Shown in pieces: positions 1,704 to 33,002 of a DNA stretch of 64,000 nucleotides (its first letter is position 1; the number at the start of each line of letters is the position of its first letter). The position numbers were made by a program, and so were the translations under genes. The notes beneath the pieces were generated by a model. That model worked only from the letters and a program-made list of their open reading frames with translations, was not told where the DNA came from and ran no database searches. Source of the DNA: Comamonadaceae bacterium (GTDB lineage Bacteria > Pseudomonadota > Gammaproteobacteria > Burkholderiales > Burkholderiaceae_C); assembly GCA_947475685.1 (NCBI GenBank), contig CANJNC010000011.1:12361-76360 (forward strand). Direction: 5' to 3'.

Positions 1704-1955
1704 AATTTCTCCTCTGTGTGTGTCGAATTTTTTTTCTTGAATCGCTTGCCCATTGCAAGCTTTCGAATAAAAAAGCTGATTGTATCAAGCAGTCATTGGA
1801 TCTTCCGAGTCTAAAAAGATTTGTAAACCAAACAAAAGCAAGATTCATTTGTAAATGTAAGTGATATATGAAGCGCCTCGAAGAAGATTTGCCCTAAGAA
1901 GGGCTTAAAATAGGGGTTAATCCTGAGTTTAATTTCATTTGAGAAACGAACAACC

Positions 1956-14740: not shown

Positions 14741-15018
14741 GGCGGGGCTGAGTCCAAATGCTGCTCTTTAAGCAAGGTTCGCAATGTATTTTCAACAATT
14801 ATTAAACCATATTTATAACAAAACGTCGCTAAGTATTTCACTCTAAGGAAAAAAATGAGATAATCATAGGTTGTGTTCATTCGGCACATAAAAAAAACGG
14901 GTCTGGGTTTGACGTATCAACGTTTATGGCTACAGGTCTTAAGTCTTGACGTGATTTCACAAGAATGCACGAAGAGGCACCCAAGGTTTTTCAGTCAGAA
15001 ATTCACTAAGGTTCAAAA

Positions 15019-16918: not shown

Positions 16919-17410
16919 TTGAAACACATCATATCTGTACTTTTAGAAAATGAGCCTGGCGCTTTATCGCGTGTGGTGGGATTGTTCTCAGCTCGAGGTT
17001 ACAACATTGAGTCGCTGACGGTTGCTCCCACCGAGGACCCGAGCTTGTCTAGGATGACACTGCAAACTGCGGGTTCGGATGATGTCATTGAGCAAATCAC
17101 CAAGCACTTGAACCGCTTGATTGAAGTGGTCAAGGTCGTTGATTTGACGGAGGGCCCCTATACGGAGCGAGAATTGATGCTTGTCAAAGTTCGCGCCGTT
17201 GGAAAAGAACGTGAAGAGATGAAGAGAATGGCCGATATCTTTCGCGGTCGCATCATCGATGTGACAGACAAGAGCTATACCCTTGAGCTGACGGGCGACC
17301 AAGCCAAGAACGATGCATTTTTGCAAGCCGTTGACAGTACCGCAATTCTTGAGACCGTTCGAACCGGTCCATGTGGTATTGGCAGAGGTGAGCGGATCTT
17401 AAGAGTTTGA
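16919..17410 (+). CDS. ilvH: Acetolactate synthase small regulatory subunit
   Basis: ACT domain LENEPGALSRVVGLFSARGYNIESL; TTG start. Confidence 0.97.
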   Translation: MKHIISVLLENEPGALSRVVGLFSARGYNIESLTVAPTEDPSLSRMTLQTAGSDDVIEQITKHLNRLIEVVKVVDLTEGPYTERELMLVKVRAVGKEREEMKRMADIFRGRIIDVTDKSYTLELTGDQAKNDAFLQAVDSTAILETVRTGPCGIGRGERILRV

Positions 17411-17415
17411 ATTAA

Positions 17416-18459
<1,044 letters not shown>

Positions 18460-18463
18460 TTGC

Positions 18464-18477
18464 CCTTAAGTGTTTGA
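18464..18477 (+). repeat. Left copy of 14-bp direct repeat CCTTAAGTGTTTGA
   Basis: Exact match to 32244-32257; lies 4 bp after the ilvC stop. Confidence 0.85.
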
Positions 18478-18482
18478 CATCC

Positions 18483-18527
18483 AACCCTCTGACTGGCTGC
18501 AAAAGATAGCTGGCTAGAGGGTTTTTT
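18483..18527 (+). terminator. Rho-independent terminator after ilvC
   Basis: AACCCTCT…AGAGGGTT stem extended by G-U pairs, followed by a T tract. Confidence 0.7.
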
Positions 18528-18875
18528 ATGGCCTATTGGTTTTAGATGCAAAGTGTTGTGTAGGTCTGTCGTGCGTTGCAGGAGTTGACATTCCAATGCA
18601 AATGATCGCAAAAGGCGCTCATCCTGATTTATAAACCCGGGGTTGACAGTTGTTTGGATTTGGCCACTCAGCAAACATCAACCAACAAGCACGCAGAAAC
18701 AATTCCAGCCTTGAATGTCAGAGCTTGCTTCGTTCTCTATGGGCGCTTCAAAAAAGACTTGTCAGTATTGACTTCGCCATTTTGTCTGAATGAATAGAGA
18801 GAACCAGACAGGCCGAGTCTGATCAGTATGACGTCCATCGCACTTATATAGAGAAAATATTAACCCTGCCATGTC

Positions 18876-20195
18876 TTAAATGAAAAGCAGCACGGCAATC
18901 ATCGCTCCTGATAAACAGGTCGAAAGCGTTCCAATCAGCAGGGACTTCGCGCCCATTTGAACGATCTCCCTTTGCCGATCAGGTGCCATGGAGCCTATTC
19001 CTGCAATGACAATGCCTAGACTGCCAAAGTTGGCAAAACCACATAGCAGATAAGTCATTAAAACTCTTGAGTGCTCACTCATTGCATTGGGATTTAATTG
19101 AGAGAGGTCTAGATAAGCGATGAACTCATTCAAGACCAACTTGGTGCCCATCAGTTGCCCTGCAATTTGCGTGTCCTTCCACTCGATTCCAAGGGTCCAT
19201 GAGAAGGGCTGCATCACCCAGCCGATGACGCGTTGGATGGTTAAAGCAGAGCCGTCAAGGTAAGGTAAAAATTCAAGAATGCTATTGCCAAGGGACACCA
19301 GGGCCACCAAAACAATCAACATGGCAATGACACTTGCCAGCAAACGCATGCCTTGAAAGGTGCCATCACTGATGGCATCCATGGTGCTTTGGTATTTTCT
19401 ATGTTTGTCCGTGCTCTGGATCAACGCCATGATGTATGTTTTCAAGCCATGGTTCTTAAGTTCTTGCGCCTCAGATCCTGAGGACGGGCTTTCTTGTAAA
19501 GGAATTTTTGGAATTGCAACCAGACTCAAGACAATGGCCCCTGGCGCACTGATCAAGGATGCGATGATCAAGTGGGTGACCACGTTGGGGACTGAGCTTT
19601 GTAGAAAGCTTGCATAAATCACCAGCACGGTGCCTGAAATGGTTGACATGCCGGTGCTCATGACAACAAACAATTCGGATCTAGAGAGCCCAGCCAAATA
19701 AGGCCTGATAAGTAGAGGTGCCTCAACGATGCCCACAAAAACGGTTGCAATGCTTGCAAAGGATGTAGCGCCCGATACGTTCAGTATCTTGCCAAGCAAC
19801 CAAGCAAAACAACCGATGATCACGGGTAAAACTCGCCAGTAATAAAGGAGTGCTGACAATGCACTGAATATTAAAATCATCGGCAATGCTTGCAAGCCCA
19901 AGATAAAGGACATGCCAGGAGACTTTTCTTCAAAGGGCAGGGGTCCTCCGCCCAAATATCCAAATACAAGCGACGTGCCTGCTTGGGTGGCTTTTTGAAG
20001 TTGAAGGACAGTTTCGTTCAAGGAACTCAAAAAACTTTGGATGAAGGGGACCTTTAAAAGCAGCACAGCCAATACAAATTGAAACAGCAGTCCTTTGAGC
20101 AAGCTGATGAAGTCAATGTGTGAGCGGTTTTCAGACACGCCAATAGTGATCAGTAAGATGATCACAATACCAATCAAAGATTGATAATTTTCCAT
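18876..20195 (-). CDS. nupC: Concentrative nucleoside transporter (NupC/CNT family)
   Basis: FVGIVEAPLLIRPYL, TISGTVL, KLVLNEFIAY, LCGFANFGSLGI. Confidence 0.93.
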   Translation of the reverse strand: MENYQSLIGIVIILLITIGVSENRSHIDFISLLKGLLFQFVLAVLLLKVPFIQSFLSSLNETVLQLQKATQAGTSLVFGYLGGGPLPFEEKSPGMSFILGLQALPMILIFSALSALLYYWRVLPVIIGCFAWLLGKILNVSGATSFASIATVFVGIVEAPLLIRPYLAGLSRSELFVVMSTGMSTISGTVLVIYASFLQSSVPNVVTHLIIASLISAPGAIVLSLVAIPKIPLQESPSSGSEAQELKNHGLKTYIMALIQSTDKHRKYQSTMDAISDGTFQGMRLLASVIAMLIVLVALVSLGNSILEFLPYLDGSALTIQRVIGWVMQPFSWTLGIEWKDTQIAGQLMGTKLVLNEFIAYLDLSQLNPNAMSEHSRVLMTYLLCGFANFGSLGIVIAGIGSMAPDRQREIVQMGAKSLLIGTLSTCLSGAMIAVLLFI

Positions 20196-20236
20196 GTGCA
20201 GGCCTTCGCTTAAAACGATTGAAATTCACCCGTCGC

Positions 20237-21280
20237 TCAAGCGCCCAACCGAATTAAATCATCGTGGGTCAAATGCTCTGTTTGTTGTCCTATCCAACCA
20301 AGCAGTCTAGATTTCCAGTTTAAAAAAGAGGCGGGCGCTTTGACAGCAGTATACTCAAGTCGGCTTTGAGCGCCACGTTTTCGCTTAAAGTCACCTGCAC
20401 CAGAGCTGTAATTGAGCAAAAGTTGGTGCTCTAAAGTGTACTGATAGATGCTAGCAAATAACAGTCGATAGATCCCTGGCTTTGTCTCGCTTTCAAAATA
20501 ACCCAAAGCTGGAACAGTTAAAGTATCCCCAATTTGGTGCAGTAAAGCAAAGGCTACTATCTCCCCTTCTTCATTGATCAAATTCAAACAAGACATCCAT
20601 TTGGTATTGATCATGTCTTTAAAGAATGCGGGTGTGTAATTGGCATTGTAGACACTGTGTTTTTTGATGTAAATGAGTTCATACAAAGACTGAAGGCGCT
20701 CAGCTTGTAGGTCATCAATCAAGTCCATCGATGAGACTTTGAGTTTGGATTTCTTTAAGGCACTTAAGTCTCTTGTGAGATGTGAAGGTTTTACTTTCAT
20801 GCCCATTCGAAGATCGAATTCATAAACTACGCGTGCTGGCAAAGCCACAAAACCTATTTTTTTAAGATCGAGAATCAGTTGCTGGTGTTTATACATCAGC
20901 AAATTTCGAACAAATATAAAAGAACTTAAATGTTGATGTTTAAAAGATTGACACGTCTGAAATAAAGCAGTGTCGTCAGCTGTACGCCATACATTGGTTG
21001 AGATTGGAAAGTTTCCAACAATTGCGTTGTCACTCATGCCAATCGAGTTGGCCAAGTGCGAGAAGATCTTAAGGAGTGCTTTTAAAAAGCAATGGCCTTG
21101 TAGTTCATCTGCTGCGTAGTCAAACCACGCAATTTTTGGCGAAGTGATGTAGCAAGATGCAAAGGGCTTTTGTTTGTGAGTGATGGTGATCGGCAAGGCG
21201 CCAGGCTCCCAGTGGAGTTCTGCGCCCGCATTCACCATCCACTCTTGGAGCGAATGAGCCCAGGGGGCTATTTTCTTCAA
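20237..21280 (-). CDS. Uncharacterised FemAB-like tandem-GNAT protein (347 aa)
   Basis: LYELIYIKKHSVYNANYTPAFF, GEIVAFALL, LGY…GIYRLL and NYSSGAGDFKRKRGA resemble FemAB/DUF482-type GNAT motifs; TTG start overlaps the btaA stop (TTGA). Fold inferred, not searched. Confidence 0.7.
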   Translation of the reverse strand: MKKIAPWAHSLQEWMVNAGAELHWEPGALPITITHKQKPFASCYITSPKIAWFDYAADELQGHCFLKALLKIFSHLANSIGMSDNAIVGNFPISTNVWRTADDTALFQTCQSFKHQHLSSFIFVRNLLMYKHQQLILDLKKIGFVALPARVVYEFDLRMGMKVKPSHLTRDLSALKKSKLKVSSMDLIDDLQAERLQSLYELIYIKKHSVYNANYTPAFFKDMINTKWMSCLNLINEEGEIVAFALLHQIGDTLTVPALGYFESETKPGIYRLLFASIYQYTLEHQLLLNYSSGAGDFKRKRGAQSRLEYTAVKAPASFLNWKSRLLGWIGQQTEHLTHDDLIRLGA

Positions 21281-22518
21281 TGGTTGAATCTATACAAATG
21301 CAACGCGCCATAGATTCCTGAGCGATCTTGCGGACCCAAGGAGTCAGAGATTTGATGGTCTCTTGTCCACTGATCGGCCAGGGGTCCTGTCAAACAAGCA
21401 TCAACAGGCGATTGAGAGCCAGCCGTTCTGAAGATGACCCTTGCACCTGGTTTGGCCGCTTGGGTGATGGCTGTCCATACGGCAGTCAATTCATGAGGTG
21501 TCATCCAATCTTGAGCATCTAAAAGGTTCACAATATCAACTGATTGGGGGCCTAGGTTGATCAGCTTATCTCTGATGTTGTTGTGCTCAATTGAAATTTT
21601 GTGAACGCAGTCACGTAAAAAAGCATAATTTTCTTTAACCAAATATGGCGGAAGCGCACTTTGACCCGACTCATCGTATTTTCTTGCATAGGCTTGCCAA
21701 GCAAAATAGTTGTCCTTGATTGGTACAACAGTGGCCAATTGTCTAGCTCTTTGTTTTAAGATTTCTGACATTTGTTCTGGCTTGTTGTCACACAAAGCCA
21801 AGTGCTGACTTGGAGGAATACCAAGGTTGTACAAAGCGTAAGGACTGCTGCAAATTTTAGTAACCAGTCTAGAGTCGAAAATCTTAGCGACTTTTTGGTC
21901 AAACCAAATCTTTTGATCTTCAACAGTTTTTTGCTCTAAAAGTTCAGACAATTTCACGCCATGTAATTTTGCCCCCATGTGGATAATTCCAATGATCTGA
22001 CCGAGCAGACCGTATTTGTAAAAACCTTTGGCAAACATTTGAATCCTCTTGGATCCAAACGGTCCGCTTTCCCAGTACGCTCGGCTTTCTTGATCCAATT
22101 GAGGTGAAATGATCGCATTGTAGATTCTGACATTGCTCGTTGATTTTGCAATGCCAAAAAATCTAAAGAAGTCTTCGTGGTACTCCAGTGTTTTGAGCGC
22201 TGCAATTTTCAAGTGATTCAAAGCAATGTGAGCATGATTGAGATCCACAACGGAAATTTTTGCGGGATTTGCCATCAAATAGGACAAGGCGTTGCACCCG
22301 CCAGAGGCAATGGTGAGCATGTGATCGGTGCTTTTGATCTGTAAGGCATTCATGTCCACCATAGGGTCTTCCCAAATTTGTGTATAAACCAAGCGATCGA
22401 ACCACATTGCAAAAATTTTATCTTTCAGCGTTGTTTTGGATTTGTGTCCAAAAACTGCGTTGTTCAACAGTACTTTTGATTTCTTTAGGCTGAGTGTTGG
22501 ACTTGAAGTTGTATTCAT
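21277..22518 (-). CDS. btaA: BtaA: SAM:diacylglycerol 3-amino-3-carboxypropyltransferase (DUF3419)
   Basis: LVYTQIWEDP, TIASGGCNALSYL, NYFAWQAYAR, LLDAQDWM, ARVIFRTA, DRSGIYGALHLY; 413 aa, full length relative to alphaproteobacterial BtaA. Confidence 0.88.
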   Translation of the reverse strand: MNTTSSPTLSLKKSKVLLNNAVFGHKSKTTLKDKIFAMWFDRLVYTQIWEDPMVDMNALQIKSTDHMLTIASGGCNALSYLMANPAKISVVDLNHAHIALNHLKIAALKTLEYHEDFFRFFGIAKSTSNVRIYNAIISPQLDQESRAYWESGPFGSKRIQMFAKGFYKYGLLGQIIGIIHMGAKLHGVKLSELLEQKTVEDQKIWFDQKVAKIFDSRLVTKICSSPYALYNLGIPPSQHLALCDNKPEQMSEILKQRARQLATVVPIKDNYFAWQAYARKYDESGQSALPPYLVKENYAFLRDCVHKISIEHNNIRDKLINLGPQSVDIVNLLDAQDWMTPHELTAVWTAITQAAKPGARVIFRTAGSQSPVDACLTGPLADQWTRDHQISDSLGPQDRSGIYGALHLYRFNH

Positions 22519-22594
22519 GAGTGAAAAAAATCCCTATGGATGAAGATATGTATCCAATTGTGGATCACTAATATTTCATTTGAATGTTACTTTT

Positions 22595-22612
22595 ATTACT
22601 TTTTAGTGACTT
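22595..22612 (-). promoter_or_regulatory. Weak PhoB-box-like site upstream of btaA
   Basis: Minus strand AAGTCAC-taaa-AAGTAAT; no clean -10 at 10 bp. Confidence 0.35.
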
Positions 22613-22696
22613 AACAATTTTTATCAACTTCAACATTCAAGGCTTGGACAGATCGTTGCGATCGTTTTTTTAAAATTTAAGCACATAAGATTCAAA

Positions 22697-22714
22697 ATGT
22701 CACAAACCTTTAAT
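22697..22714 (+). promoter_or_regulatory. PhoB-box-like site for the TPAT-NPP operon
   Basis: ATGTCAC-aaac-CTTTAAT, then a 10-bp spacer and TAATAT (22725-22730). Confidence 0.7.
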
Positions 22715-22742
22715 GTGCAAAAGGTAATATATTTGCAAAATA

Positions 22743-23654
22743 ATGGACACAAAAATGTCAAATTCAGTTGTAAAAAAAAGCATCTTTATTTTCTGGGCAA
22801 TGACTGTACTTTTAGCAACGCCTGGTTGTGCAATCAACACCTTTGTAGTCGATCAAGTGGCAAAGAACCTTGTATCAGAGGATGACCATGAACAAGATCT
22901 ATTTTTAGCTCGGGATGCCAGTCCTTTTTATTTAAAGTTGACAGAAAATTTATTGATCCGTTCGCCCGCAAATTTAAACTTGGCACAAGCCGTTTGCAGT
23001 GGTTTTACACAGTATGCATATACATTTATTGCATTTGAAGCAGAAAAAATTGAAGGCAGTGACTACAAGCGTGCAGAGGTCTTAAGAGAGAGGGCCTCCA
23101 AGATGTATGCGCGTGCATTCAATCATGGGATGAAAGCATTGGATTTGAAGTTCAGTGGTTTTGGTGCAAAGCTTAAAGCCTCAGGCAATATGGACCCTAA
23201 AGTTATACCATCAACAGATGTAGGACTTCTTTATTGGACGGCGGCTTCTTTGGGCGGTTGGATATCAACCGCCAAGGACATGCCGGACTTGGTTGCAGAT
23301 TTCCCCATTGCCCTTCGTTTAGCGCATTTGGCGTGGCAAATAGATCCGTCCTATTCTCAAGGTTCTTTGGCAAGCCTCATGGGTAACTTTGAGTGGGCCA
23401 ACCCGAACGGATCAAAGCCATTGGCAACACAATATTTCGATTGGGCAATTCAATATTCAAAAGATCAAAATGCAGGTCCCTTTGTCTCCAAAGCAGAAAA
23501 GGTTGCTGTGGCAATGAAAGACAGGCGAATGTTTGAAAAACTTCTCAATCAAGCAAAAGAGATCGCTCAAAAATACCCAAATTTACAAAATGAGGCCATG
23601 CGTTTGCGTGCACAATGGTTACTTGAAAACGAAGACGAGCTTTTTGAAAGTTGA
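22743..23654 (+). CDS. TRAP-associated TPR lipoprotein (TatT component of a TPAT system)
   Basis: Lipoprotein-like signal (…LATPG-C), AVCSGFTQYAYTF, LLYWTAASLGGWIS helical TPR-like repeats; immediately upstream of DctP. Start may be ATG 22755. Confidence 0.85.
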   Translation: MDTKMSNSVVKKSIFIFWAMTVLLATPGCAINTFVVDQVAKNLVSEDDHEQDLFLARDASPFYLKLTENLLIRSPANLNLAQAVCSGFTQYAYTFIAFEAEKIEGSDYKRAEVLRERASKMYARAFNHGMKALDLKFSGFGAKLKASGNMDPKVIPSTDVGLLYWTAASLGGWISTAKDMPDLVADFPIALRLAHLAWQIDPSYSQGSLASLMGNFEWANPNGSKPLATQYFDWAIQYSKDQNAGPFVSKAEKVAVAMKDRRMFEKLLNQAKEIAQKYPNLQNEAMRLRAQWLLENEDELFES

Positions 23655-24673
23655 AGATGAACTTAAACCGATTGGTCCGAATTTTTTCATGTTTGGTTTT
23701 TCTTGCTTTTGCAAGTTCAAGCTTTGCAGCGGACAAGCCCTTGAGGATGGGGACACTGGCACCCAAGAACTCTCTTTATTACAGACAACTCATTGAAGTC
23801 GCTGAGGCGTGGAAAGGTGCCGCAGGGGGTAATTCAAAGTACACCGTGTACGCAGACGGTAGCCAAGGAGGAGAGACAGAGCTTGCCAGAAGGATGCGAA
23901 TTGGGCAACTGCAAGGCGCGCTCTTGTCAGTGGTGGGTTTGAAGGAAATTGAACCCTCTATCAGTGCATTGCAGTCCATGCCCTTGCTTTTTAAAAGCTG
24001 GGAAGAGCTTGATTTCGTTCGGGAAAAGATGCGTCCTGGCATGGAGAAGAAATTTCTTGAAAAGGGATTTGTTGTCTTGGCTTGGGGAGATGCAGGCTGG
24101 GTCAGGTTCTTTTCAAAGGAGCCGGCTTTTAAGCCAGATGATTATAAAAAGATGAAGTTTTTTTCCTGGGGAGGGGAGCCCGAACAGCAAGAGATCATGA
24201 AGAGCTTGGGCTATACGCCCGTTCCTTTGGAGACGACAGATATTTTACCGTCTATACAAACGGGCATGATTTCTGTGGTTCCCTCTACACCGTATTTTGC
24301 AATGGCCAGTCAAATCTACAACACAGCCAACAACATGCTTGAGATCAATTGGGCACCGGTCGTTGGAGCTTTGGTGATCACTAAAAAAGCATGGGATGAG
24401 ATGAGTCCTTCAACCCAAGAAGCGGTTCGATCGGCTGGCGACAAGGCGGGAGATCAAATCAGGATCAAAGCCCGCCTAGAAGTTGAAGAGGCGGTAGAGG
24501 CCATGAAAAAGAGAGGTTTGATTGTGAACAAACCCTCGCCAGAGCAAATGAAAGAGTGGAACACCCTTGCTGCAAACTTGTACCCCAGGATTAGGGGAGC
24601 AATGGTCCCGGCAGAAACGTTTGATGAAGTTTTCAAACATTTAAATACATACAGAGCTGGCAAGCAAAAGTGA
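23651..24673 (+). CDS. dctP: TRAP solute-binding protein (DctP/TatP type)
   Basis: LRMGTLAPKNS, RMRIGQLQGALL, PVPLETTDILPSIQTGMI; 4-bp overlap with TatT. Confidence 0.92.
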   Translation: MKMNLNRLVRIFSCLVFLAFASSSFAADKPLRMGTLAPKNSLYYRQLIEVAEAWKGAAGGNSKYTVYADGSQGGETELARRMRIGQLQGALLSVVGLKEIEPSISALQSMPLLFKSWEELDFVREKMRPGMEKKFLEKGFVVLAWGDAGWVRFFSKEPAFKPDDYKKMKFFSWGGEPEQQEIMKSLGYTPVPLETTDILPSIQTGMISVVPSTPYFAMASQIYNTANNMLEINWAPVVGALVITKKAWDEMSPSTQEAVRSAGDKAGDQIRIKARLEVEEAVEAMKKRGLIVNKPSPEQMKEWNTLAANLYPRIRGAMVPAETFDEVFKHLNTYRAGKQK

Positions 24674-26451
24674 AATTGAATCAAATCAAACTGGATGAAA
24701 TTATTTCATCCCTAGCCTTGATTTTAATGGCAATCATTCCAGTGATTGAAATCCTTGCCCGTCCAGTACTTGGCAAAGGTATTGAAAACGCTCCAATTTT
24801 GGTTCAACACTTTGGGCTTGTGATGTCCATGTTTGGGGCCATTGCAGCTTATCGTTTTGGACATCTTTCAAGTATTGGCGTTATATTCAACTCGTTTAAG
24901 ATTCCTGCACGAATCTTATCGAGTTTAATCTGTGGCTTATTGTGCTGGGCGTGTTGGCATTTTGTGAGCACTGAAAGATCGGCCAATCAAATGTTGGCTT
25001 ATTCAATACCTTTGTGGATTTTACAATTGGTCATGCCAATTGGATTCTTGCTCTTGAGTTGGCAAATCGTCTCTGAGGGTTTGAATTTATTTTTATCTAA
25101 AGCCGTTGCAATTTTAAGCGTGAGCGTCATTAGTTATTTGCTTTTTCAGTTTTTTGAATCAAATGCAACGTCGATATGGCCCATGCTGTTGATTTTGGTG
25201 GTTATGTTTTTAGGCGGTGCACCCATATTTTCCATCATTGCCGCTTTGGCTTTGGGATTGTTTTTGCAAGATGGTTTGCCACTGTCCTCTGTGGCTTTGT
25301 CGCATTATCAAATCACGGTCAACCCATCGTTGCCTGCGTTGCCCTTATTTACGCTGGCTGGGTTGGTTTTTGCATCGACCGGGTCGGCCAAGCGTTTAGG
25401 GCTGTTATTCATGGCTGTGTTTGGCACGGGTGTCAGAGGGACCGTGTTTGCAACAACCGTTTTATGCTCATTTTTCACGGCCTTTACTGGAGGCAGTGGG
25501 GTGACCATTTTGGCGCTTGGAGGCTTGTTGCTCCAACTGTTAAGTGACACTGGATATTCGAAAAAAAGAGGGATTAGTCTTGTGACCAGTGCGAGTGCCC
25601 TTGGTGTTTTATTGGCACCTTCTGTACCACTGATCATGTATGCGATTATTGCTCGCGTACCGATCAACGATATGTTTTTGGCAGGTCTTGTGCCAGCATT
25701 GGTCATGGTCTTGTCATTGTTGGTATTTGGTGGATATCTAAAGAAGGAAAATCAATTTGAAGCAAAAGAGCATGTCCATGCTTTTTCATGGTTGAGATTA
25801 AAGCAGGCGAGTTGGGATGCAAAATGGGAAATTTTGACGCCATTTGTTGCTATAGGTTCCCTGGTCAGTGGGTTTGCAACGCCTACTGAAAGCGCTGCGA
25901 TTACAGCCGTTTATGCCATCGTCACTCAAATGATCTTTAACCGAGAATTGAGTTTGGAGCAATTTAAACACTCATTGCTTAAGTGCACACAAATTATTGG
26001 GGGTGTCATGTTGGTCCTTGGCATGGCATTGGGCATGACCAATTACTTAATTGATGCGGGAATTCCTGACCTGGCAATCCAATGGGTTCAGGGCATCACG
26101 AGCAATAGATATGTTTTCTTGCTTGCGCTTAATGTATTTTTATTTTTTGCTGGTGCGCTGATGGAAATTTACGCAGCCATCGTTGTATTGGTGCCCTTGT
26201 TGTTGCCCTTGGCGCTGTCTTATGATATTCATCCGATTCATTTTGGCATTATCTTTTTGGCCAATATGGAGATGGGATTTTTATGTCCACCTGCGGGCAT
26301 GAATATATATTTCGCATCCGCTGTATTTAACCAACCTTTAAAGGATGTGGCCCTCTCCATTTGGCCAGCATTGATTGCTATTTTTATCGGAACTGTTATT
26401 ATTTCTTGGCTTCCGTTACTGAGCACTGGCTTGCCTCAGTTTTTCAAATGA
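24670..26451 (+). CDS. dctM: Fused TRAP small+large permease (DctQM)
   Basis: 593-aa polytopic protein; ALPLFTLAG, AFTGGSGVT, LLAPSVPLIMYAI, ATPTESAA, HPIHFGIIFLANME…CPP. Confidence 0.92.
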   Translation: MKLNQIKLDEIISSLALILMAIIPVIEILARPVLGKGIENAPILVQHFGLVMSMFGAIAAYRFGHLSSIGVIFNSFKIPARILSSLICGLLCWACWHFVSTERSANQMLAYSIPLWILQLVMPIGFLLLSWQIVSEGLNLFLSKAVAILSVSVISYLLFQFFESNATSIWPMLLILVVMFLGGAPIFSIIAALALGLFLQDGLPLSSVALSHYQITVNPSLPALPLFTLAGLVFASTGSAKRLGLLFMAVFGTGVRGTVFATTVLCSFFTAFTGGSGVTILALGGLLLQLLSDTGYSKKRGISLVTSASALGVLLAPSVPLIMYAIIARVPINDMFLAGLVPALVMVLSLLVFGGYLKKENQFEAKEHVHAFSWLRLKQASWDAKWEILTPFVAIGSLVSGFATPTESAAITAVYAIVTQMIFNRELSLEQFKHSLLKCTQIIGGVMLVLGMALGMTNYLIDAGIPDLAIQWVQGITSNRYVFLLALNVFLFFAGALMEIYAAIVVLVPLLLPLALSYDIHPIHFGIIFLANMEMGFLCPPAGMNIYFASAVFNQPLKDVALSIWPALIAIFIGTVIISWLPLLSTGLPQFFK

Positions 26452-26476
26452 TCTCACTCTACCTTAGGCATTTAGA

Positions 26477-27709
26477 TTGATTAGTCGGCGCTCACTTCAA
26501 CACTTGTTGATTATTTGTTTAGTCAACTGCATGTGCACTTTGGCTTTAAATAGCTTTGCACAAAGTAAAACTCCTCCAAAACCGCTGGTGCTTCTCATTG
26601 GAATTGATGGTTTTAAACCAAGTTACTTGACACTGGGTGTGACACCTCGATTAAAGTCCTTGGCGCAATCTGGCGTTCTTGCAAAGGGTTCTATTTCTGC
26701 ATTTCCATCTTTGACGTTTCCAAACTTTGTGAGTTTGGTGACGGGTCTAACGCCTGATCACCATGGAATTGTGAACAACACCATGACCGATCCAGCAACC
26801 GATCAACTCTTTACTTTGAGTTCAAGAGAGGCCGTTGAGAATCCCTTTTGGTGGACGAAAACCACTCCCATTTGGACCAACTTGAGACAACAAGGCGGTA
26901 TAGCCTCTGCTATGTTTTGGCCTGGTTCTGAGGTTGAAATCAACGGCAGTCGCCCCAACGACTGGGTGCGATATGAGCATGGCATGTCACACGAAAGAAG
27001 GCTTGAATATTTGGTGTCTTGGTTGTCCAGAGGAGAGACTTTAAGACCCAATCTTGCAACACTTTATCTCTCTGATGTTGACTCTGCTGGGCATGAGTTT
27101 GGGCCAGACAGTGAACAAGTTAGGGATGCAGTTGCAAAGGTCGATCAGACTATTGGAGCATTAATCGATGCAATTTCAAACTTGGGATTAAAGGAGAGAA
27201 CGACCTTTGTACTTGTTTCTGACCATGGTATGGCCAGTACGCCTGCGGCCAAGTCCATCGATGTCAGTCAATTACTAAAAGATTTTCCAAAAGCCAAATG
27301 GGAGTGGCAAGGTGCAACTTCTGCTGTCAGACTCAATGGTGAAAATGGATTGCAAGTTCTAAATGTACTGTCTCAGCAATCCAATCTTGATTGTTATGAG
27401 AAAGGTAAGTTGCCGCAAAGCTTTAAGTTTGGTACCCACCCAAGAATTCCAGAGATCGTTTGCGTGTCCAAAATGGGTTACACCGTTACAGCCAACCCTT
27501 ACCGCAAGGGGCCGCTTGGTCAACATGGGTTTGACCCTCTGTTGACTGAAATGCATGGACTCTTTTTGGCATCAGGCCACCGGATCAAACCTGGCGAATT
27601 GGGCTTGATCGAGAACATCGAGGTTTACCCACTCTTATGCCAACTGCTCGGTATTCTTGAGCAAAAAAACGATTCCAAGCACCTCTTAAAAGACATCGTT
27701 TTGAATTAA
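26477..27709 (+). CDS. Nucleotide pyrophosphatase/phosphodiesterase (NPP, alkaline phosphatase superfamily), exported
   Basis: GIDG, PSLTFPN (Thr nucleophile), DVDSAGH, SDHGM, GQHGFD; N-terminal signal with SRRSL. Confidence 0.92.
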   Translation: MISRRSLQHLLIICLVNCMCTLALNSFAQSKTPPKPLVLLIGIDGFKPSYLTLGVTPRLKSLAQSGVLAKGSISAFPSLTFPNFVSLVTGLTPDHHGIVNNTMTDPATDQLFTLSSREAVENPFWWTKTTPIWTNLRQQGGIASAMFWPGSEVEINGSRPNDWVRYEHGMSHERRLEYLVSWLSRGETLRPNLATLYLSDVDSAGHEFGPDSEQVRDAVAKVDQTIGALIDAISNLGLKERTTFVLVSDHGMASTPAAKSIDVSQLLKDFPKAKWEWQGATSAVRLNGENGLQVLNVLSQQSNLDCYEKGKLPQSFKFGTHPRIPEIVCVSKMGYTVTANPYRKGPLGQHGFDPLLTEMHGLFLASGHRIKPGELGLIENIEVYPLLCQLLGILEQKNDSKHLLKDIVLN

Positions 27710-27730
27710 TCCTTGTTTAGTTTATCAGTT

Positions 27731-27757
27731 AAAAAGGCACCAAATGAGTGCCTTTTT
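27731..27757 (+). terminator. Terminator after NPP
   Basis: AAAAAGGCAC-caaatga-GTGCCTTTTT. Confidence 0.8.
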
Positions 27758-27865
27758 CTATTTGCGAGAAAAATTATTTAATTTGATATTAAAGTTTTAT
27801 TTATTTTTGTGGTTTTTGTGTTTTTGACTTTAAGAATGAATTATTTTAACTAGGGTAATCCATGG

Positions 27866-27883
27866 ATGTCACAAGAATGTAAC
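27866..27883 (+). promoter_or_regulatory. PhoB-box-like site for exbD-tonB-TBDR-exbB
   Basis: ATGTCAC-aaga-ATGTAAC, then a 10-bp spacer and CACAAT (27894-27899). Confidence 0.8.
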
Positions 27884-27905
27884 TTAGTTTTCGCACAATG
27901 ACTTG

Positions 27906-28355
27906 ATGCGCAGATTCCCTTACCAAGCTAGGAAAAAGTCACGAATTGAAATCATTCCAATGATTGATGTGATGATGTTTTTACTGGTTTTCTTTGTGCT
28001 CATTAGCATCAATGTGATTCCCGCTTTGGGCATCAAGATGAATTTGCCCAGCTCCAATTCTGTCAAAGAGGAGCATCCACCCATTCGTGTCATCTTAAGC
28101 ATATCAGCTGATGGGTCTTATCAGCTTGATGGGCAAAGCTTTGCTTCGCTTGAGAGCTTAAAGTCGGCCTTATTGGGTCTTAAACATCAAAACGAAGCCA
28201 AGTCCAGTCAAAACGCCTTGATCAATTCAAGTCCCCGCCTCGCAGTCATTATCAATGGAGATGAGCAGTCTCCACTACAGCGTTTGGTGGATGTCATGGA
28301 CATGCTCAAGTCAAGTGGCATTGATTCAATGACCATTGCGTCAAAGAAAAAATAA
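27906..28355 (+). CDS. exbD: ExbD/TolR biopolymer transport protein
   Basis: IEIIPMIDVMMFLLVFFVL (TM Asp), VIINGD…LVDVMDML. Confidence 0.93.
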   Translation: MRRFPYQARKKSRIEIIPMIDVMMFLLVFFVLISINVIPALGIKMNLPSSNSVKEEHPPIRVILSISADGSYQLDGQSFASLESLKSALLGLKHQNEAKSSQNALINSSPRLAVIINGDEQSPLQRLVDVMDMLKSSGIDSMTIASKKK

Positions 28356-28360
28356 AAGAT

Positions 28361-29062
28361 ATGAATGCGGCGCTTCAATGGACTTATGAAAAAAGAGACC
28401 CCATCTCTTTTGTCAGCGCATTTCTTTTGGGATTGTTGGTTTTGTTGCTGATTCAAGTATCTGCAATCAATTTTTCAAAAAACGCTGATGTTGAAATGAC
28501 GGCTTTCATTGAATCGCCTCCTGTGCCTGAAATCATCAAACCACTCGAACCCATTAAGAAGGTGATCGAGAAACAAGAAATCCAAAAGAGAGCGGAGCCT
28601 GTGATGCCAAAGCAGGTCACCTCTCCTTTTGCAACCGAAGCGCCCAAAGAAGCCAAGCACGTCGAGACCCCAGTGCCCCTGGAAAAACCTCAAGTCCTTC
28701 AAGCACCTCAACACATCACGCCTCCTGCGCCTGTTCCATCTGCTCAACCTGTACCTTCAACTGCAAGTATTTACGAAGCTCAGTTGAGATCTTATTTGGA
28801 GAAGATCAAACGCTATCCCACCATTCGAGAGGCGCGACTCACCAGACCACAGGGTGCTGTTCGTGTTTGGTTGGAGATTTCTAGAAACGGGCAGGTCCTA
28901 GGCGTGGGTGTCATGACGTCATCGGGCTCGAATTTATTGGATGGAGAGGCTTTGAAAACCTTGAAAACCGGTTCGTATCCTGCTTTTCCTGAGGATGCGT
29001 ATGTTGGTGAAAATGCCCATAAGTTTTCTGCAACCCTTAATTACACCCTTGAGCCTCAATGA
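28361..29062 (+). CDS. tonB: TonB energy transducer
   Basis: N-terminal TM, Pro/Glu/Lys-rich linker, C-terminal RYP…PQGAVRVWLEISRNG…SSGSNLLD. Confidence 0.92.
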   Translation: MNAALQWTYEKRDPISFVSAFLLGLLVLLLIQVSAINFSKNADVEMTAFIESPPVPEIIKPLEPIKKVIEKQEIQKRAEPVMPKQVTSPFATEAPKEAKHVETPVPLEKPQVLQAPQHITPPAPVPSAQPVPSTASIYEAQLRSYLEKIKRYPTIREARLTRPQGAVRVWLEISRNGQVLGVGVMTSSGSNLLDGEALKTLKTGSYPAFPEDAYVGENAHKFSATLNYTLEPQ

Positions 29063-29130
29063 ATTGAGGGTTTGGTTGCAACAGTTTTGTTTTTTGAGAT
29101 TTTAAAGTTCAATTATTTTTAGGAGAAAAA

Positions 29131-31524
29131 ATGAAGAAGTCGAATCGTGTTTTCCAACTGTCCTTGTTGAGCATTGCTCTTTTGAGCACGGGATATTTTT
29201 CATCCGCCATGGCGCAAAAGGCGCCTACCGATGTGGGTACCGTCAAAATCACGGGTGAGGGTGATGCATTGGGCAATGGGCTTTTGATTGATGAAGACGG
29301 TGTAAAAACAAAAAGCACTGTTACAAAAGCTTCGATTGACAAAGAGCGTCCAACCGCCAATGCATATCAAGTTTTGAACTTGATGCCCAGTGTCAATGCA
29401 TCGAGCTACGATGCCACAGGACTTTTTGGCGGGAATTTAAGAGTGAGAGGTTTTAACAGTGATCAAATGGGTTTCACCATCAATGGCGCTCCTGTCAATG
29501 ACTCTGGTAACTTTGCCATCTATCCACAAGAGTATTCTGATATTGAGAACATGTGCGAAGTCTTCATTACACAAGGATCTGTGGACACCGATGCACCCCA
29601 TGTAGGCGCCTCAGGCGGTAATGTTGGCATGGTGAGTTGTTCACCCAAGGACAAATTTGGCGGTAAGTTTTCCGGCTCATTGGGCGATTTGAACTTCAAG
29701 CGTTCCTTTTTGCGACTTGATACCGGTTTAATAGGCAAGGAGCATCCCTTTAAAGCCTTTATCTCCTACTCGGCTGCTTCAGTTGATAAATTCAAAGGGC
29801 TTGGTGGCGCCAATCGCCATCACACAGATGTTGGTTTAGATTGGAAGCTGACCGATAACACAACATTGACATCCAACTTACTTTACAACTTTGCTGTAAA
29901 TAATAATTTTTTGACTCTGACCAAAGCGGAGTTTGCTCAAAATCAAAACCTTGATTTCAGCTCCACGGTACCTCAGCACCTGGCATCGGGCTCGGAGAAC
30001 ACCACTGCCAATTTTGGTACCAGCAGCGCTGGTGCAACGCCAAGAACCAAGTTGGCTTACTACAACTACTCTTTGAATCCATTTGAGAACTATCTCTTCA
30101 CCTCACGTTTGCAAACTCGAGTTGATGATAAATTGACCCTGAGTGCAGAGCCCTATTTTTGGTACGGTTATGGCACTGGTGGTACTCAGCAGACAACGCT
30201 TGCCGAATCAAGCACTGGATTTCGCGCAGGGATTGCAGATATCAACAAAAATGGCAATACAACCGACACAGTCGGTATCTACAGAGGAAGTGTGACCGAG
30301 ACGAACCGCCCAGGCATTACATTCAAAGCCAATTACGACCTAGGCGATCACAAGATTTTGGCCGGATTGTGGATGGAGCAAGCTCGTCATCGTCAAACTC
30401 AGCCTGCGACCACCATGGACAACAGTGGAACTGTTTCTGACCTTTGGCTAAGAAATAATTTATTGAAATACAACGATGGTAGTTTGTATGAGGGTAGAAA
30501 TTACAAAACCGTATCCACTGCTTACTCCTTGTTCTTACAAGACACGATTTCCATGGGTCGCTTGGACGTCGTTCCTGGTGTGAGATTTTCTTCCATCAAG
30601 CGTGACTTTACCAACTACGCATCAAGTGGATCTGGCTTAGGAGCAGATTATTCTACTGACAGAACATTCACCAAACCTTTGATGTCTTTAGGTGCGCGTT
30701 ACAAAATCGACGACTCATTGCAAGCTTACGCAAACGTTTCACAAAATTTGCGTGCCCCGTCTAATTTTGTCTTGGCAGGCTGGGTCACTGGCGGAACGTA
30801 TGCCAATGGCGCATTGACTGGATATAAACTTGTTGCTAACAACTCCATTCAAGCTGAGACATCGGTTGCGACTGAGGCTGGTCTGCGTATCACTGAGGGA
30901 GATGTCAAAGGATCAGTTTCATTGTTCCAAGTCAACTTCAAGAATCGAATTGCTCAAGGATTCAATCCTGACACGGCCACTTACACTGACTACAACGTTG
31001 GGGACTCGACCATCAAGGGTTTAGAGCTGCAAATGGGCACCAAGCCCGTCAACGGTTGGAGTGTGTTTGGTTCTGCAACGTACACGCAAAGCACAATCTC
31101 TAACAACTTTCCCGCAACGGCAACAAGCACCTTGCCCACTGCTGGCGCCACGTTCCCTGACACACCTCAGTGGATGTATGCTGCCTCTGTGCAATACGCT
31201 TCTGGCCCTTATCTCGCGTCCTTGTCTGGTAAGTACACGGGCAAGCGTTACACCACACTGGTCAACGACGAGTTCTTAGATGCCTATACGGTGTTTGACT
31301 TGAATGCGGGCTATCGCTTTGACAATGGTGCTTTCTTCAAGAGCCCAACAGTGCGTTTGAATGTGAGTAATTTGTTCAACAAGAACTATTTGATTGCCAA
31401 TTCTGGAAGTGGCTCAAACATCACCACCTCCACAACGGCAGCCAGTTCACAAGGCGGTGGTTTTCCAAGCTACTATGTTGGAGCGCCCAGGTTTGTCAGC
31501 ATGTCTTTTAGCTCAGACTTCTAA
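29131..31524 (+). CDS. TonB-dependent outer membrane receptor (797 aa)
   Basis: Signal peptide, TonB-box-like DVGTVKITG, plug NLRVRGF…DGFTING-like segment, beta-barrel periodicity, terminal Phe (SSDF). Confidence 0.94.
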   Translation: MKKSNRVFQLSLLSIALLSTGYFSSAMAQKAPTDVGTVKITGEGDALGNGLLIDEDGVKTKSTVTKASIDKERPTANAYQVLNLMPSVNASSYDATGLFGGNLRVRGFNSDQMGFTINGAPVNDSGNFAIYPQEYSDIENMCEVFITQGSVDTDAPHVGASGGNVGMVSCSPKDKFGGKFSGSLGDLNFKRSFLRLDTGLIGKEHPFKAFISYSAASVDKFKGLGGANRHHTDVGLDWKLTDNTTLTSNLLYNFAVNNNFLTLTKAEFAQNQNLDFSSTVPQHLASGSENTTANFGTSSAGATPRTKLAYYNYSLNPFENYLFTSRLQTRVDDKLTLSAEPYFWYGYGTGGTQQTTLAESSTGFRAGIADINKNGNTTDTVGIYRGSVTETNRPGITFKANYDLGDHKILAGLWMEQARHRQTQPATTMDNSGTVSDLWLRNNLLKYNDGSLYEGRNYKTVSTAYSLFLQDTISMGRLDVVPGVRFSSIKRDFTNYASSGSGLGADYSTDRTFTKPLMSLGARYKIDDSLQAYANVSQNLRAPSNFVLAGWVTGGTYANGALTGYKLVANNSIQAETSVATEAGLRITEGDVKGSVSLFQVNFKNRIAQGFNPDTATYTDYNVGDSTIKGLELQMGTKPVNGWSVFGSATYTQSTISNNFPATATSTLPTAGATFPDTPQWMYAASVQYASGPYLASLSGKYTGKRYTTLVNDEFLDAYTVFDLNAGYRFDNGAFFKSPTVRLNVSNLFNKNYLIANSGSGSNITTSTTAASSQGGGFPSYYVGAPRFVSMSFSSDF

Positions 31525-31530
31525 AAGTTC

Positions 31531-32091
31531 ATGACTGAGTTTTTACACCAAGCCTCATTTGGGCTGATGATCATCTCTGCCATCATTGCAACCGTGGTGA
31601 GTGTGGAGAGGATCATCTTCTCCAGTATGAATCTCAAGCGTGCAAAACTTTTGACAGCCAGCATCGACACACAAAGAGGCTCTATGGGGTCTTTGTTGGG
31701 CCAAGATGTGGTGTCTGAAATGGTGCAAAAACTCTTGGACGATAAGGCTCAAAACTTTGCACCTGCTGTTCAACAAGACAGGGCTGACGCCGCATTTATT
31801 CACGCAAAAGATGAATTGGGCGATAGACTTTGGATGCTTGACACGATTGTGACCGCAGCGCCATTGATGGGGCTCTTGGGGACCATTTTTGGCATTGTGG
31901 ATACCTTCTTGGCACTTTCCAAGTCCGGTATGTCTGACCCCGCGGGGGTCAGTGCAGGCATTGGAACGGCTCTTTACGCCACAGCTCTGGGGATTTCTAT
32001 TGCTTTGATAGGCCTTTTTGCCTTTAACTTTTTGAGTGACCGCAATGAGAGAATAGGTGAGCATTTGAAGATGTTGATTTTGCGTCTTTAA
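31531..32091 (+). CDS. exbB: ExbB/MotA/TolQ proton channel
   Basis: TIVTAAPLMGLLGTIFGI, GIGTALYATALGI. Confidence 0.92.
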   Translation: MTEFLHQASFGLMIISAIIATVVSVERIIFSSMNLKRAKLLTASIDTQRGSMGSLLGQDVVSEMVQKLLDDKAQNFAPAVQQDRADAAFIHAKDELGDRLWMLDTIVTAAPLMGLLGTIFGIVDTFLALSKSGMSDPAGVSAGIGTALYATALGISIALIGLFAFNFLSDRNERIGEHLKMLILRL

Positions 32092-32117
32092 GCTTCAACC
32101 TTTGATGAGGCACACCC

Positions 32118-32157
32118 GCCGCTAACTGGATCTTGAGCCAGTTGGCGGCCTTTTTTT
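32118..32157 (+). terminator. Terminator after exbB
   Basis: GCCGCTAACTGG-atcttgag-CCAGTTGGCGGC then T7. Confidence 0.85.
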
Positions 32158-32243
32158 ATGTGTTCGATCAGCCCATTCCTTCATTGGGGTGAGTTTTCTG
32201 CGCTTTGTGCTCAATGGGGTTCCCTTTGAGGGCTTCAAATTTA

Positions 32244-32257
32244 CCTTAAGTGTTTGA
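32244..32257 (+). repeat. Right copy of 14-bp direct repeat CCTTAAGTGTTTGA
   Basis: Exact match to 18464-18477; 94 bp upstream of the psd start. Confidence 0.85.
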
Positions 32258-32351
32258 TTTCATTTGAGAAAAACTCATTTTTTGAAATGAATTAAAAAGT
32301 TCTCTTAGCCCATTACAATCAAAGGCAACAAGATTTACCAAAGGTGCTGCC

Positions 32352-33002
32352 TTGAATTATCCACATCCTATTTTGGCAAGAGAAGGTTGGCCTTATATTG
32401 CCATGAGTTTGATTGCAGCCTTTGTGGCCCACTGGCAGGGAGGGTGGGCCTGGGGTTTGCTCTTTGATCTGATGGGTGTTTTTGTCATCCAGTTTTTTCG
32501 TGACCCTCCCAGAGAAATTCCCCGTGAAGAGGATGCGGTTTTGTCGCCCGCAGATGGTCGAGTGATCAAGGTCGAGCGGGCTTTTGATCCTTACGCCAAT
32601 CGAGAAGCGATTTTGATCAGTGTATTCATGAATGTGTTCAATGTTCATAGCAACCGAGTGAGCGTGAACGGCACCGTCAGCAAGATTGAGTATTTTCCGG
32701 GTAAGTTTTTCAATGCAGATTTAGACAAGGCCTCTACAGAAAATGAGCGCAATGCCATGGTCATTGAAGCTGAATTTGCCGGGCACTCCAAAACCATCAC
32801 TTTGGTGCAGGTTGCAGGCCTGATTGCCAGAAGAATCCTTTGCTATGTCCAAGTTGGAGATCAGCTTCAAAAAGGTCAGCGTTATGGGTTCATTCGTTTC
32901 GGCTCTAGAGTGGACGTGTATTTACCCATCGACGCGATCGTGAAAGTTTCTCCTGGAGATAAAGTCTCTGCGACCATGACCATTTTGGCTAAATTAAGCT
33001 GA
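32352..33002 (+). CDS. psd: Phosphatidylserine decarboxylase proenzyme
   Basis: [31 protein letters not shown] (GS autocleavage site). Confidence 0.96.

Follow-up and report, generated by a model that had tools for sequence, protein, structure and literature searches.

An old, vertically inherited gene block between ilvC and psd and the short direct repeat at its borders

We analyzed a 13.8-kb block of 11 genes located between ilvC and psd and found it to be a genuine insertion relative to the genus-wide ilvC–psd adjacency, one that is old, vertically inherited, and fixed in the species. The 14-base direct repeat at its borders is a short DNA word that has been duplicated and is probably functional; it does not indicate that the block is mobile at present. 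The finding is mainly of value as a correction: an integrase-less block enclosed by a perfect direct repeat resembles a mobile or flexible island, and the comparative data point instead to an old, fixed insertion passed on by vertical descent. At this locus, the addition of three nutrient-scavenging operons to a core biosynthetic cluster can be dated within a freshwater betaproteobacterial clade, and a short cis-word has survived on either side of the insertion.

The repeat and the gene block

The 14-mer CCTTAAGTGTTTGA occurs in exact copies at positions 18464–18477 and 32244–32257, both on the plus strand, bracketing the block as the original prediction had stated; the 3,765,583-base (3.77 Mb) assembly contains these two exact copies and no others. 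With mismatches allowed, the repeat extends to 17 identical bases out of 19 (ATTGCCCTTAAGTGTTTGA vs. ATTTACCTTAAGTGTTTGA). One copy lies in each of the two spacers bounding the block, on the ilvC side and on the psd side. A repeat of this length is not rare per se: the window (the whole 64-kb stretch of DNA analyzed) contains 31 exact direct pairs of at least 14 bases, and our own arithmetic from this count gives p ~1.6e-3 for one of the 31 having its two copies in the left (416 bases) and right (260 bases) spacers, respectively. Genome-wide, we counted 5 near-copies of the 14-mer at one mismatch and 43 at two, numbers not enriched against and lying inside the range of 30 permuted controls, and we rejected the 14-mer itself as a dispersed motif. 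The pattern TAAGTNNTTGA was fitted by the two copies only; the TAAGTnnTTGA-like words near 14935 and 33015, earlier proposed as recurrences, are looser and do not fit it. A match to the word at the 3′ end of ilvH (TCTTAAGAGTTTGA, 17397–17410) was taken as chance, 0.63 such matches being expected.

The gene order is ilvB, ilvH, ilvC, followed by the block genes encoding NupC, a 347-aa protein, DUF3419, TAtT, DctP, DctQM, an NPP phosphodiesterase, ExbD, TonB, a TonB-dependent receptor, and ExbB, and then by psd, pssA, and leuA. Domains related to transport, lipids, or phosphodiesterases were assigned to ten of the 11 block open reading frames; for the 347-aa protein, Pfam gave no significant match, and its GNAT-like matches are weak. 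On the left flank, ilvC (ketol-acid reductoisomerase with Pfam KARI_N and KARI_C; 17443–18459, plus strand) is followed by the left 14-mer copy, starting 4 bases past the stop, and by an intrinsic terminator consisting of a hairpin and a U run (18483–18529, plus strand; predicted centroid fold of –21.2 kcal/mol). The alignment shows this terminator to be orthologous in all block-bearing lineages. The long left spacer (18530–18875) has no match elsewhere in the genome, and ~330 bases of it are missing from the sister lineages G074 and G096. Operon 1 (18876–22518, minus strand) encodes the BtaA-like DUF3419 protein, the 347-aa weakly GNAT-like protein, and the NupC nucleoside transporter; operon 2 (22743–27709, plus strand) the TAtT, DctP, and DctQM components of a TRAP transporter and the NPP-type phosphodiesterase; and operon 3 (27903–32091, plus strand) ExbD, TonB, the TonB-dependent receptor, and ExbB. 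An intrinsic terminator after exbB (32118–32158, plus strand) is followed by a poorly conserved spacer (32159–32243), presumably the block-side end, that barely aligns between sister lineages, and then by the right 14-mer copy and psd (phosphatidylserine decarboxylase; 32352–33002, plus strand).

We searched the block and its surroundings for signs of mobility. The domain search revealed no recombinase or transposase domain in the 11 block genes, bearing out their description as integrase-less, and no recombinase beside the block. Scans of the whole window gave no tRNA or tmRNA gene and no Rfam match. The block has no terminal inverted repeats, and no inverted pair joins its two ends. A BLAST search of the border spacers against the genome found no repeated element, with weak matches to the psd-upstream region only.

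Age and descent of the insertion

Among the genus members lacking the block, ilvC lies directly before psd in all species checked, more than 40 in number, with a gap of –1 to ~450 bases, and 10 of the 12 further families checked within the order show the same succession of the two genes. The arrangement assumed as normal in the original prediction is thus real, and the block is an insertion relative to it. The same 11 genes were found in the same order between ilvC and psd in G074, G096, G149, G092, G144, L250, and one further contig, placing the block in at least seven species-level lineages. In the tree of the flanking genes, these lineages form one clade (100/100), and the block genes yield an identical branching order, each fork being supported at 100%. 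The base composition of the block differs from that of its surroundings (G+C ~0.44 vs. ~0.49 in the flanks); nevertheless, the two trees are the same. Synonymous divergence (dS) from the nearest sisters G074 and G096 is 0.65–1.2 for the flanks and 0.9–1.7 for the block, all near saturation, and reaches 1 to >2 for the other block-bearing lineages. Given the agreement of the trees and the similar dS values, a re-acquisition of the block in this lineage was rejected.

Within the species, nupC follows ilvC in 18 of the 19 contigs with an identical IlvC, the remaining one ending right after ilvC and being uninformative, and block sequence precedes psd in all 23 contigs with an identical Psd. Conspecific junctions are at least 99.5% identical, and none of the 41 informative conspecific contigs contains an empty site. 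A scan of metagenomes with Psd for closer relatives returned one same-species fragment at 98% and nothing else above 76%. The block is thus part of the core genome of the clade and not of its flexible part: the absence of empty sites among those contigs, the constant gene content and order in all lineages, and the agreement of block and flank trees speak against recombinational gain and loss and against the replacement island suggested earlier.

Replacement and additive types of flexible genomic islands have been defined for aquatic bacteria (PMC10872708), and the present block shares with these a freshwater betaproteobacterial host, a cargo of transport and nutrient-scavenging genes, and a fixed chromosomal position. 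It differs from them in having identical content and order in all lineages and conspecific contigs and in lacking flanking tRNA genes or recurring tRNA-end repeats.

The border words across lineages

Both junctions could be read in seven lineages, including this genome, denoted G000. Counted by hand over orthologous alignment columns, the left and right words are identical at 14 of 14 positions in G000, 12 in G074, 11 in G096, 8 in L250, 8 in G144, 7 in G149, and 4 in G092. In four of the seven, the left border carries a degenerate repeat or none at all. Since dS of 0.7 to >2 has accumulated since the insertion, a scar still perfect over its 28 sites cannot be a passive relic. The 14/14 identity is a late, species-specific state and says nothing about present mobility; ~six changes are required for reaching it in G000.

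At positions 1 and 3, both copies have C and T in G000, while both have T and C in G074 and G096. A rough estimate of the chance of such parallel change is p ~0.005 or less. The pattern hints at concerted evolution, which the explanation that we favor below does not account for. If concerted evolution is the cause, the exact identity in one species after saturating divergence bears on the homogenization of short repeats.

The right copy occupies the 5′ edge of a conserved psd-upstream block (32252–32290, plus strand) that contains the 20-mer GTTTGATTTCATTTGAGAAA. Further downstream, TACAAT, a –10-like hexamer within CATTACAAT (32314–32319, plus strand), is kept in the block-bearing lineages and in five relatives with an empty site. 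The IHF binding site has the consensus WATCAANNNNTTR, and such sites are found in att arms and ahead of promoters. Read on the opposite strand, the right copy (AATCAAACACTTA) fits this consensus; five of the seven lineages match it exactly and the remaining two with a single mismatch, making the copy a candidate IHF site; as the genome contains 445 exact matches to WATCAANNNNTTR, a match alone is weak evidence. Also resembling IHF sites are the conservation of the TAAG and TGATT arms, the variation of the four bases between them, and the adjoining A/T-rich tract. The left copy departs from the consensus: in G000 a single core base is mismatched, and the other lineages show two to three mismatches.

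The left word is predicted to be single-stranded, just 5′ of the hairpin of the ilvC terminator. A promoter scan found none at the left copy, where TTGACA stands without a –10 partner. A 3′UTR-derived small RNA would be expected to show conservation of such an unpaired stretch ahead of the terminator, and this is seen in part of the lineages. At the orthologous position, G074 and G096 have TCCTGAGCGTTTGA, and the word is kept in the group formed by these and G000 and in some outgroups; G092, G149, and G144 have lost it and carry unrelated sequence. Any constraint on the left copy, as judged from these sequences, is therefore not universal.

The relatives with an empty site G023, G081, G036, G084, and L165–171 contain related words just after the ilvC stop. 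These include TTTAAGTCTTTGA beginning 11 bases past the stop in G023, TTCGAGTGTCTGA in G081, and CTGAGCGTTTGA in L165 and L170–171, which is identical to the left word of G074 at 12 of 12 bases (L169 differs by one base). Being 11- to 14-base words compared across saturated divergence, some of these correspondences may be due to chance. A related word right after the ilvC stop at empty sites is what a target duplication would predict, but the relatives are distant, and some carry two to three tandem copies instead of one, G084 having three tandem 11-base units.

Origin and maintenance of the repeat

The explanation that we favor, and to which we assign about an even chance, combines an old duplication with later constraint. 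The three nutrient-scavenging operons would have entered the ilvC–psd spacer in a single event, in the stem lineage of a small clade, and would have remained chromosomal since. An ancestral word, roughly YCYTRAGYNNTTGA, would already have been present just downstream of ilvC before the arrival of the block, and the two 14-mers would be its paralogous copies. The insertion may have duplicated the word, either by copying a target cut in staggered fashion or by crossing over at short homology; alternatively, the block may have landed between pre-existing tandem copies. Both copies would later have come under local constraint, the right one at the 5′ limit of the conserved sequence preceding psd, where it fits an IHF-type bending site, and the left one between the ilvC stop and its terminator. 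We propose that this constraint is the reason for the copies being still alike after saturating neutral divergence, the perfect match having been reached by a handful of transitions in this species.

The idea of an att-like or target-duplication scar survives in part in this explanation. The insertion is real, the 14-mer pair is unique, and a related word follows ilvC at empty sites, but a perfect neutral scar is incompatible with the divergence since the insertion and with the state of the left border in most lineages. The target-site duplications of insertion sequences and composite transposons likewise place a pre-existing target word as direct copies at both ends of the inserted DNA. Among known target-site duplications, a length of 14 bases is near the upper limit. 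The present locus differs in having no transposase and no terminal inverted repeats, and the tandem words in relatives with an empty site offer a route without transposition.

A less likely reading is that both copies are cis-regulatory or architectural sites bound by the same protein, IHF or another, and kept alike by selection, whether or not they arose by duplication. The regulatory motif raised as an alternative in the original prediction gains from the right copy opening a conserved region and fitting the IHF consensus, with a variable center, at an orthologous place in five of the seven lineages, and from related words elsewhere in the genome. The sequence TAAGTNTTTGATT has six exact genomic copies, two of them upstream of mraZ, whereas 40 permuted controls averaged 1.1 copies and never exceeded 3, and the 20-mer adjoining the right copy recurs upstream of ppa and one other gene, the controls giving no matches at two or fewer mismatches. 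The parallel changes at positions 1 and 3 are also in its favor. The left copy fits it poorly, with its core mismatch, its lack of a promoter-like site, and its loss from three lineages, and near-copies of the 14-mer itself are no more frequent genome-wide than in permuted controls.

Equally doubtful is coincidence, in which the two words are unrelated and their perfect match is a chance event surfaced by a very large scan. Repeats of this length are common within the window, events of p ~1e-3 are expected when very many windows are scanned, and the 4/14 identity in G092 is at the chance level. However, the left and right words agree at 8 or more positions in five of the seven lineages and at 11–12 in the two sisters, where ~3.5 would be expected; the copies fall exactly in the two border spacers; and the word is found at the ilvC-proximal place in relatives with an empty site.

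We consider it highly improbable that the border words are being held identical, either because a recombinase encoded elsewhere uses them for crossing over or because they are paired sites of one DNA-bending protein. Were they so held, the concerted change from T,C to C,T or the reverse would represent a continuing interaction between the two ends of an integrase-less phosphorus-scavenging island. Least probable of all are live att-like sites, at which a recombinase encoded elsewhere would excise and reinsert the block through the 14-mers, the cycles keeping the cores identical: the exact identity despite saturated divergence, the parallel changes, the uniqueness of the 14-mer, and the IHF-like site at one border would fit, but none of the 41 informative conspecific contigs is empty, every lineage of the clade has the block with a co-diverging tree, neither the block nor its surroundings contain a recombinase, and outside G000 the cores differ at 2–10 of their 14 bases.

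The block nonetheless shares several features with the genomic islands of tyrosine recombinases, being an accessory multigene block at the 3′ end of a conserved gene, with an exact, short, and genome-unique flanking repeat and a related word at empty sites. Unlike those islands, it lacks an integrase and a tRNA target, does not vary in presence between strains, has co-diverged with the chromosome over dS >1, and has a repeat that is degenerate in most lineages.

Parts of the gene content were also observed in other contexts. The gene pair encoding DUF3419 and the 347-aa protein is located elsewhere in the relatives with an empty site, and the four-gene cassette of operon 3 is also present in Limnohabitans, Curvibacter, and Polynucleobacter records.

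The insertion between ilvC and psd

Among the 139 species representatives of the genus, ilvC lay directly upstream of psd, with a gap of –1 to ~450 bases, in every species without the island in which psd was found, and most other families of the order share this adjacency. The original prediction had taken psd to follow ilvC normally, and the 11-gene block separating the two in the genome under study (G000) is a real insertion. In many genus members (loci L013 and L015–L023), the stop codon of ilvC abuts the start of psd or overlaps it (AACTGATGAAC), which makes co-transcription of psd with ilvBHC probable in them; in the clade under study, a terminator and a separate psd promoter have been acquired.

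The genes form three operons: DUF3419, a 347-aa weak GNAT-like protein, and NupC on the minus strand; TAtT, DctP, DctQM, and an NPP phosphodiesterase; and ExbD, TonB, a TonB-dependent receptor (TBDR), and ExbB. The island had been described as lacking an integrase, and indeed no recombinase is encoded among its 11 genes. The window contains no tRNA genes or Rfam matches, and no inverted repeats linking the island ends were found. Candidate Pho-box half-site pairs precede exbD (TGTCACAAGAATGTAAC, window 27866–27885) and the TAtT operon (TGTCACAAACCTTTAATG, window 22697–22720).

Parts of the gene set were also observed in other settings. The DUF3419 and 347-aa pair is present elsewhere in relatives with an empty site (L151–L153, from G036, G015, and G023), in G036 at 70 kb from ilvC-psd. 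On L260, a more distant metagenome contig, the pair adjoins TAtT TRAP genes, an OlsB-like acyltransferase, a metallophosphoesterase, a glycosyltransferase, ppk, and ppx, a setting of lipid-remodelling and phosphate-stress genes. Records from Limnohabitans, Curvibacter, and Polynucleobacter (L185–L192, L202, and L230) conserve the ExbD-TonB-TBDR-ExbB cassette as a whole, and TAtT-DctP-DctQM comes directly after it in two Limnohabitans genomes; the island modules thus travel as a group in other genera, arranged differently.

Age and fixation of the island

A block with the same 11 genes, gene order, and flanks occurs in the congeneric species G074, G096, G149, G092, and G144; it is also found in lineage L250 and one further contig, and partially in L257 and L258. 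A tree of IlvB, IlvH, IlvC, Psd, PssA, and LeuA grouped the island bearers into a single clade (100/100), with an empty sister clade (G036, G081, G015, G023, and G084). The tree of the 11 island proteins had the same topology, with the groups (G000,(G074,G096)), (G092,G149), G144, L250, and L257 and 100% support at all forks. Synonymous divergence of G000 from G074 and G096 was 0.65–1.2 in flank genes and 0.9–1.7 in island genes; from the other island lineages it was 1 to >2, or saturated.

Within the species, nupC followed ilvC in 18 of the 19 contigs with identical IlvC, the remaining one ending right after ilvC, and island sequence stood upstream of psd in all 23 contigs with identical Psd. 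The junctions were at least 99.5% identical, and no empty-site variant was seen among these contigs. The island is old, vertically inherited, and fixed. Recombinational gain and loss, as proposed earlier, has left no sign in the conspecific contigs or the co-diverging trees, and with gene set and order the same across lineages the island does not belong to the flexible or replacement islands in the sense of PMC10872708. A 1,196-base JGI metagenome contig with identical ilvC (L044) ends inside the left word (...TGATTGCCCTT), which may mark an assembly-graph fork at the border or simply a break in coverage.

The border repeat and its relatives at empty sites

The exact 14-bp direct repeat predicted at the borders was confirmed: CCTTAAGTGTTTGA occurs at 18464–18477 and 32244–32257 and nowhere else in the 3.77-Mb assembly. 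Allowing mismatches, the match grows to 17/19. The left copy begins four bases past the ilvC stop, immediately 5' of the ilvC terminator hairpin, while the right copy lies 85 bases past the exbB terminator and 56 bases upstream of the conserved CATTACAAT, itself upstream of psd. Such a repeat is common in itself, the window holding 31 exact direct pairs of 14 bases or more; by our own arithmetic, the probability of one pair hitting both border spacers is ~1.6e-3. A non-coding stretch of ~330 bases (window 18545–18870) separates the ilvC terminator from the nupC stop. It includes several TGTCA and TTGAC words, matches nothing else in the genome, and is missing from G074 and G096, where the spacer is 84 bases.

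We counted left-right identity by hand over orthologous columns; unrelated sequences are expected to agree at ~3.5 of 14 positions. Identity was 14/14 in G000 (CCTTAAGTGTTTGA on both sides), 12/14 in G074 (left TCCTGAGCGTTTGA, right TCCTAAGTGTTTGA), 11/14 in G096 (TCCTGAGCGTTTGA, TCCTAAGTATTTGA), 8/14 in both L250 (CGATCAGTTGTTGA, ACCTAAGTTTATGA) and G144 (TTTTCAGTTCTTGG, TGGTAAGTCATTGA), 7/14 in G149 (TGATCAGCAAGTAA, GCATAAGCTTATGA), and 4/14 in G092 (CGATCAGATCAAAA, GCCTAAGCCATTGA). The two words are thus related in most lineages and perfectly matched in G000 only.

Empty-site relatives also carry a related word downstream of the ilvC stop. In G023, the stop is followed by two tandem-type units and a terminator (TGA TCTGAGTCTGA TTTAAGTCTTTGA). 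In G084 (L160), TGA TTCGATGTTGA TTCGATGTTGA ATCGAGTTTGA TTTGAGTAAAG precedes a hairpin, giving three tandem 11-base units (TTCGATGTTGA, TTCGATGTTGA, and ATCGAGTTTGA) in the first 45 bases, of which the last, together with its extension, looks like the right copy and its downstream TTTCATTTGAG. Related words are TTCGAGTGTCTGA in G081 and TCCGAGTGTCTCA in G036. In the more distant L165 and L170–171, the ilvC stop forms part of the word (C TGA GCGTTTGA GCG), which is 12/12 identical to the left word of G074 (CTGAGCGTTTGA); L169 differs by one base. Short tandem duplications seem to arise readily at this site. Taken together, these short matches, some perhaps due to chance, place at least one copy of the word next to ilvC before the insertion. 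The flanking repeats could then have arisen by the insertion duplicating the word or by the island landing between existing tandem copies. Of the proposed att-like or target-duplication scar, the insertion and the ancestral word at the empty site hold up, but a neutral scar and current mobility do not.

Probable constraint on the two copies

Each lineage has accumulated ~0.5 or more neutral substitutions per site since the insertion, too many for 28 unconstrained sites to have remained unchanged, and the exact identity is therefore not a passive scar. Relative to the outgroups, the left copy of G000 has ~4 derived transitions and the right copy two, after which the two match exactly. Both copies of G000 have C at position 1 and T at position 3, and both copies of G074 and G096 have T and C there. 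A chance origin of this shared change is unlikely (~0.005 or less by our estimate, from a tiny sample selected for perfection); it could reflect selection for one binding specificity or very short conversion.

The right copy forms the 5' edge of a block that every lineage conserves, and the preceding 80 bases barely align. Within the word, TAAG and TGATT stay constant around a variable centre. Reverse-complemented, the right copy matches the IHF consensus WATCAANNNNTTR exactly in five of seven lineages and with one mismatch in two, yet the 445 exact matches in the genome (0.118 per kb) make a single match weak evidence. The left copy, unpaired 5' of the terminator in the predicted fold, is conserved in G000, G074, G096, and some outgroups; G092, G149, and G144 have not kept it.

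The alternative reading of the repeat as a regulatory motif fared partly well: words related to the right copy recur upstream of mraZ and ppa, but near-copies of the 14-mer are not enriched genome-wide. TAAGTNTTTGATT has six exact genome copies against a mean of 1.1 in permuted controls, two of them upstream of mraZ. The 20-mer GTTTGATTTCATTTGAGAAA (window 32252–32271, upstream of psd) overlaps the right copy. A one-mismatch copy of it stands immediately ahead of the ppa start codon (window 1927–1946) and a two-mismatch copy ahead of a 98-aa ORF on contig C32 of G000 (C32:3285–3304); 30 permuted controls gave no match at two or fewer mismatches, and four or five sister species retain the ppa copy. 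The locus is of an ordinary kind: an old insertion flanked by copies of a short cis-word and without current mobility, and the exact identity of both copies in G000 is its single small curiosity.

Upstream of mraZ-rsmH-ftsL, the division and cell-wall cluster, two copies of CTAAGTCTTTGATTT, a word of the right-copy type, lie 54 bases apart on contig C3 (25413–25425 and 25467–25479). Another contig of G000, C86, carries four copies of a ~50-base repeat (ATTACACG...TAAGTCGTTGATTTATAAGGGTTTTTGACGAGCC) within 10 kb, at 669, 1968, 4992, and 9626.
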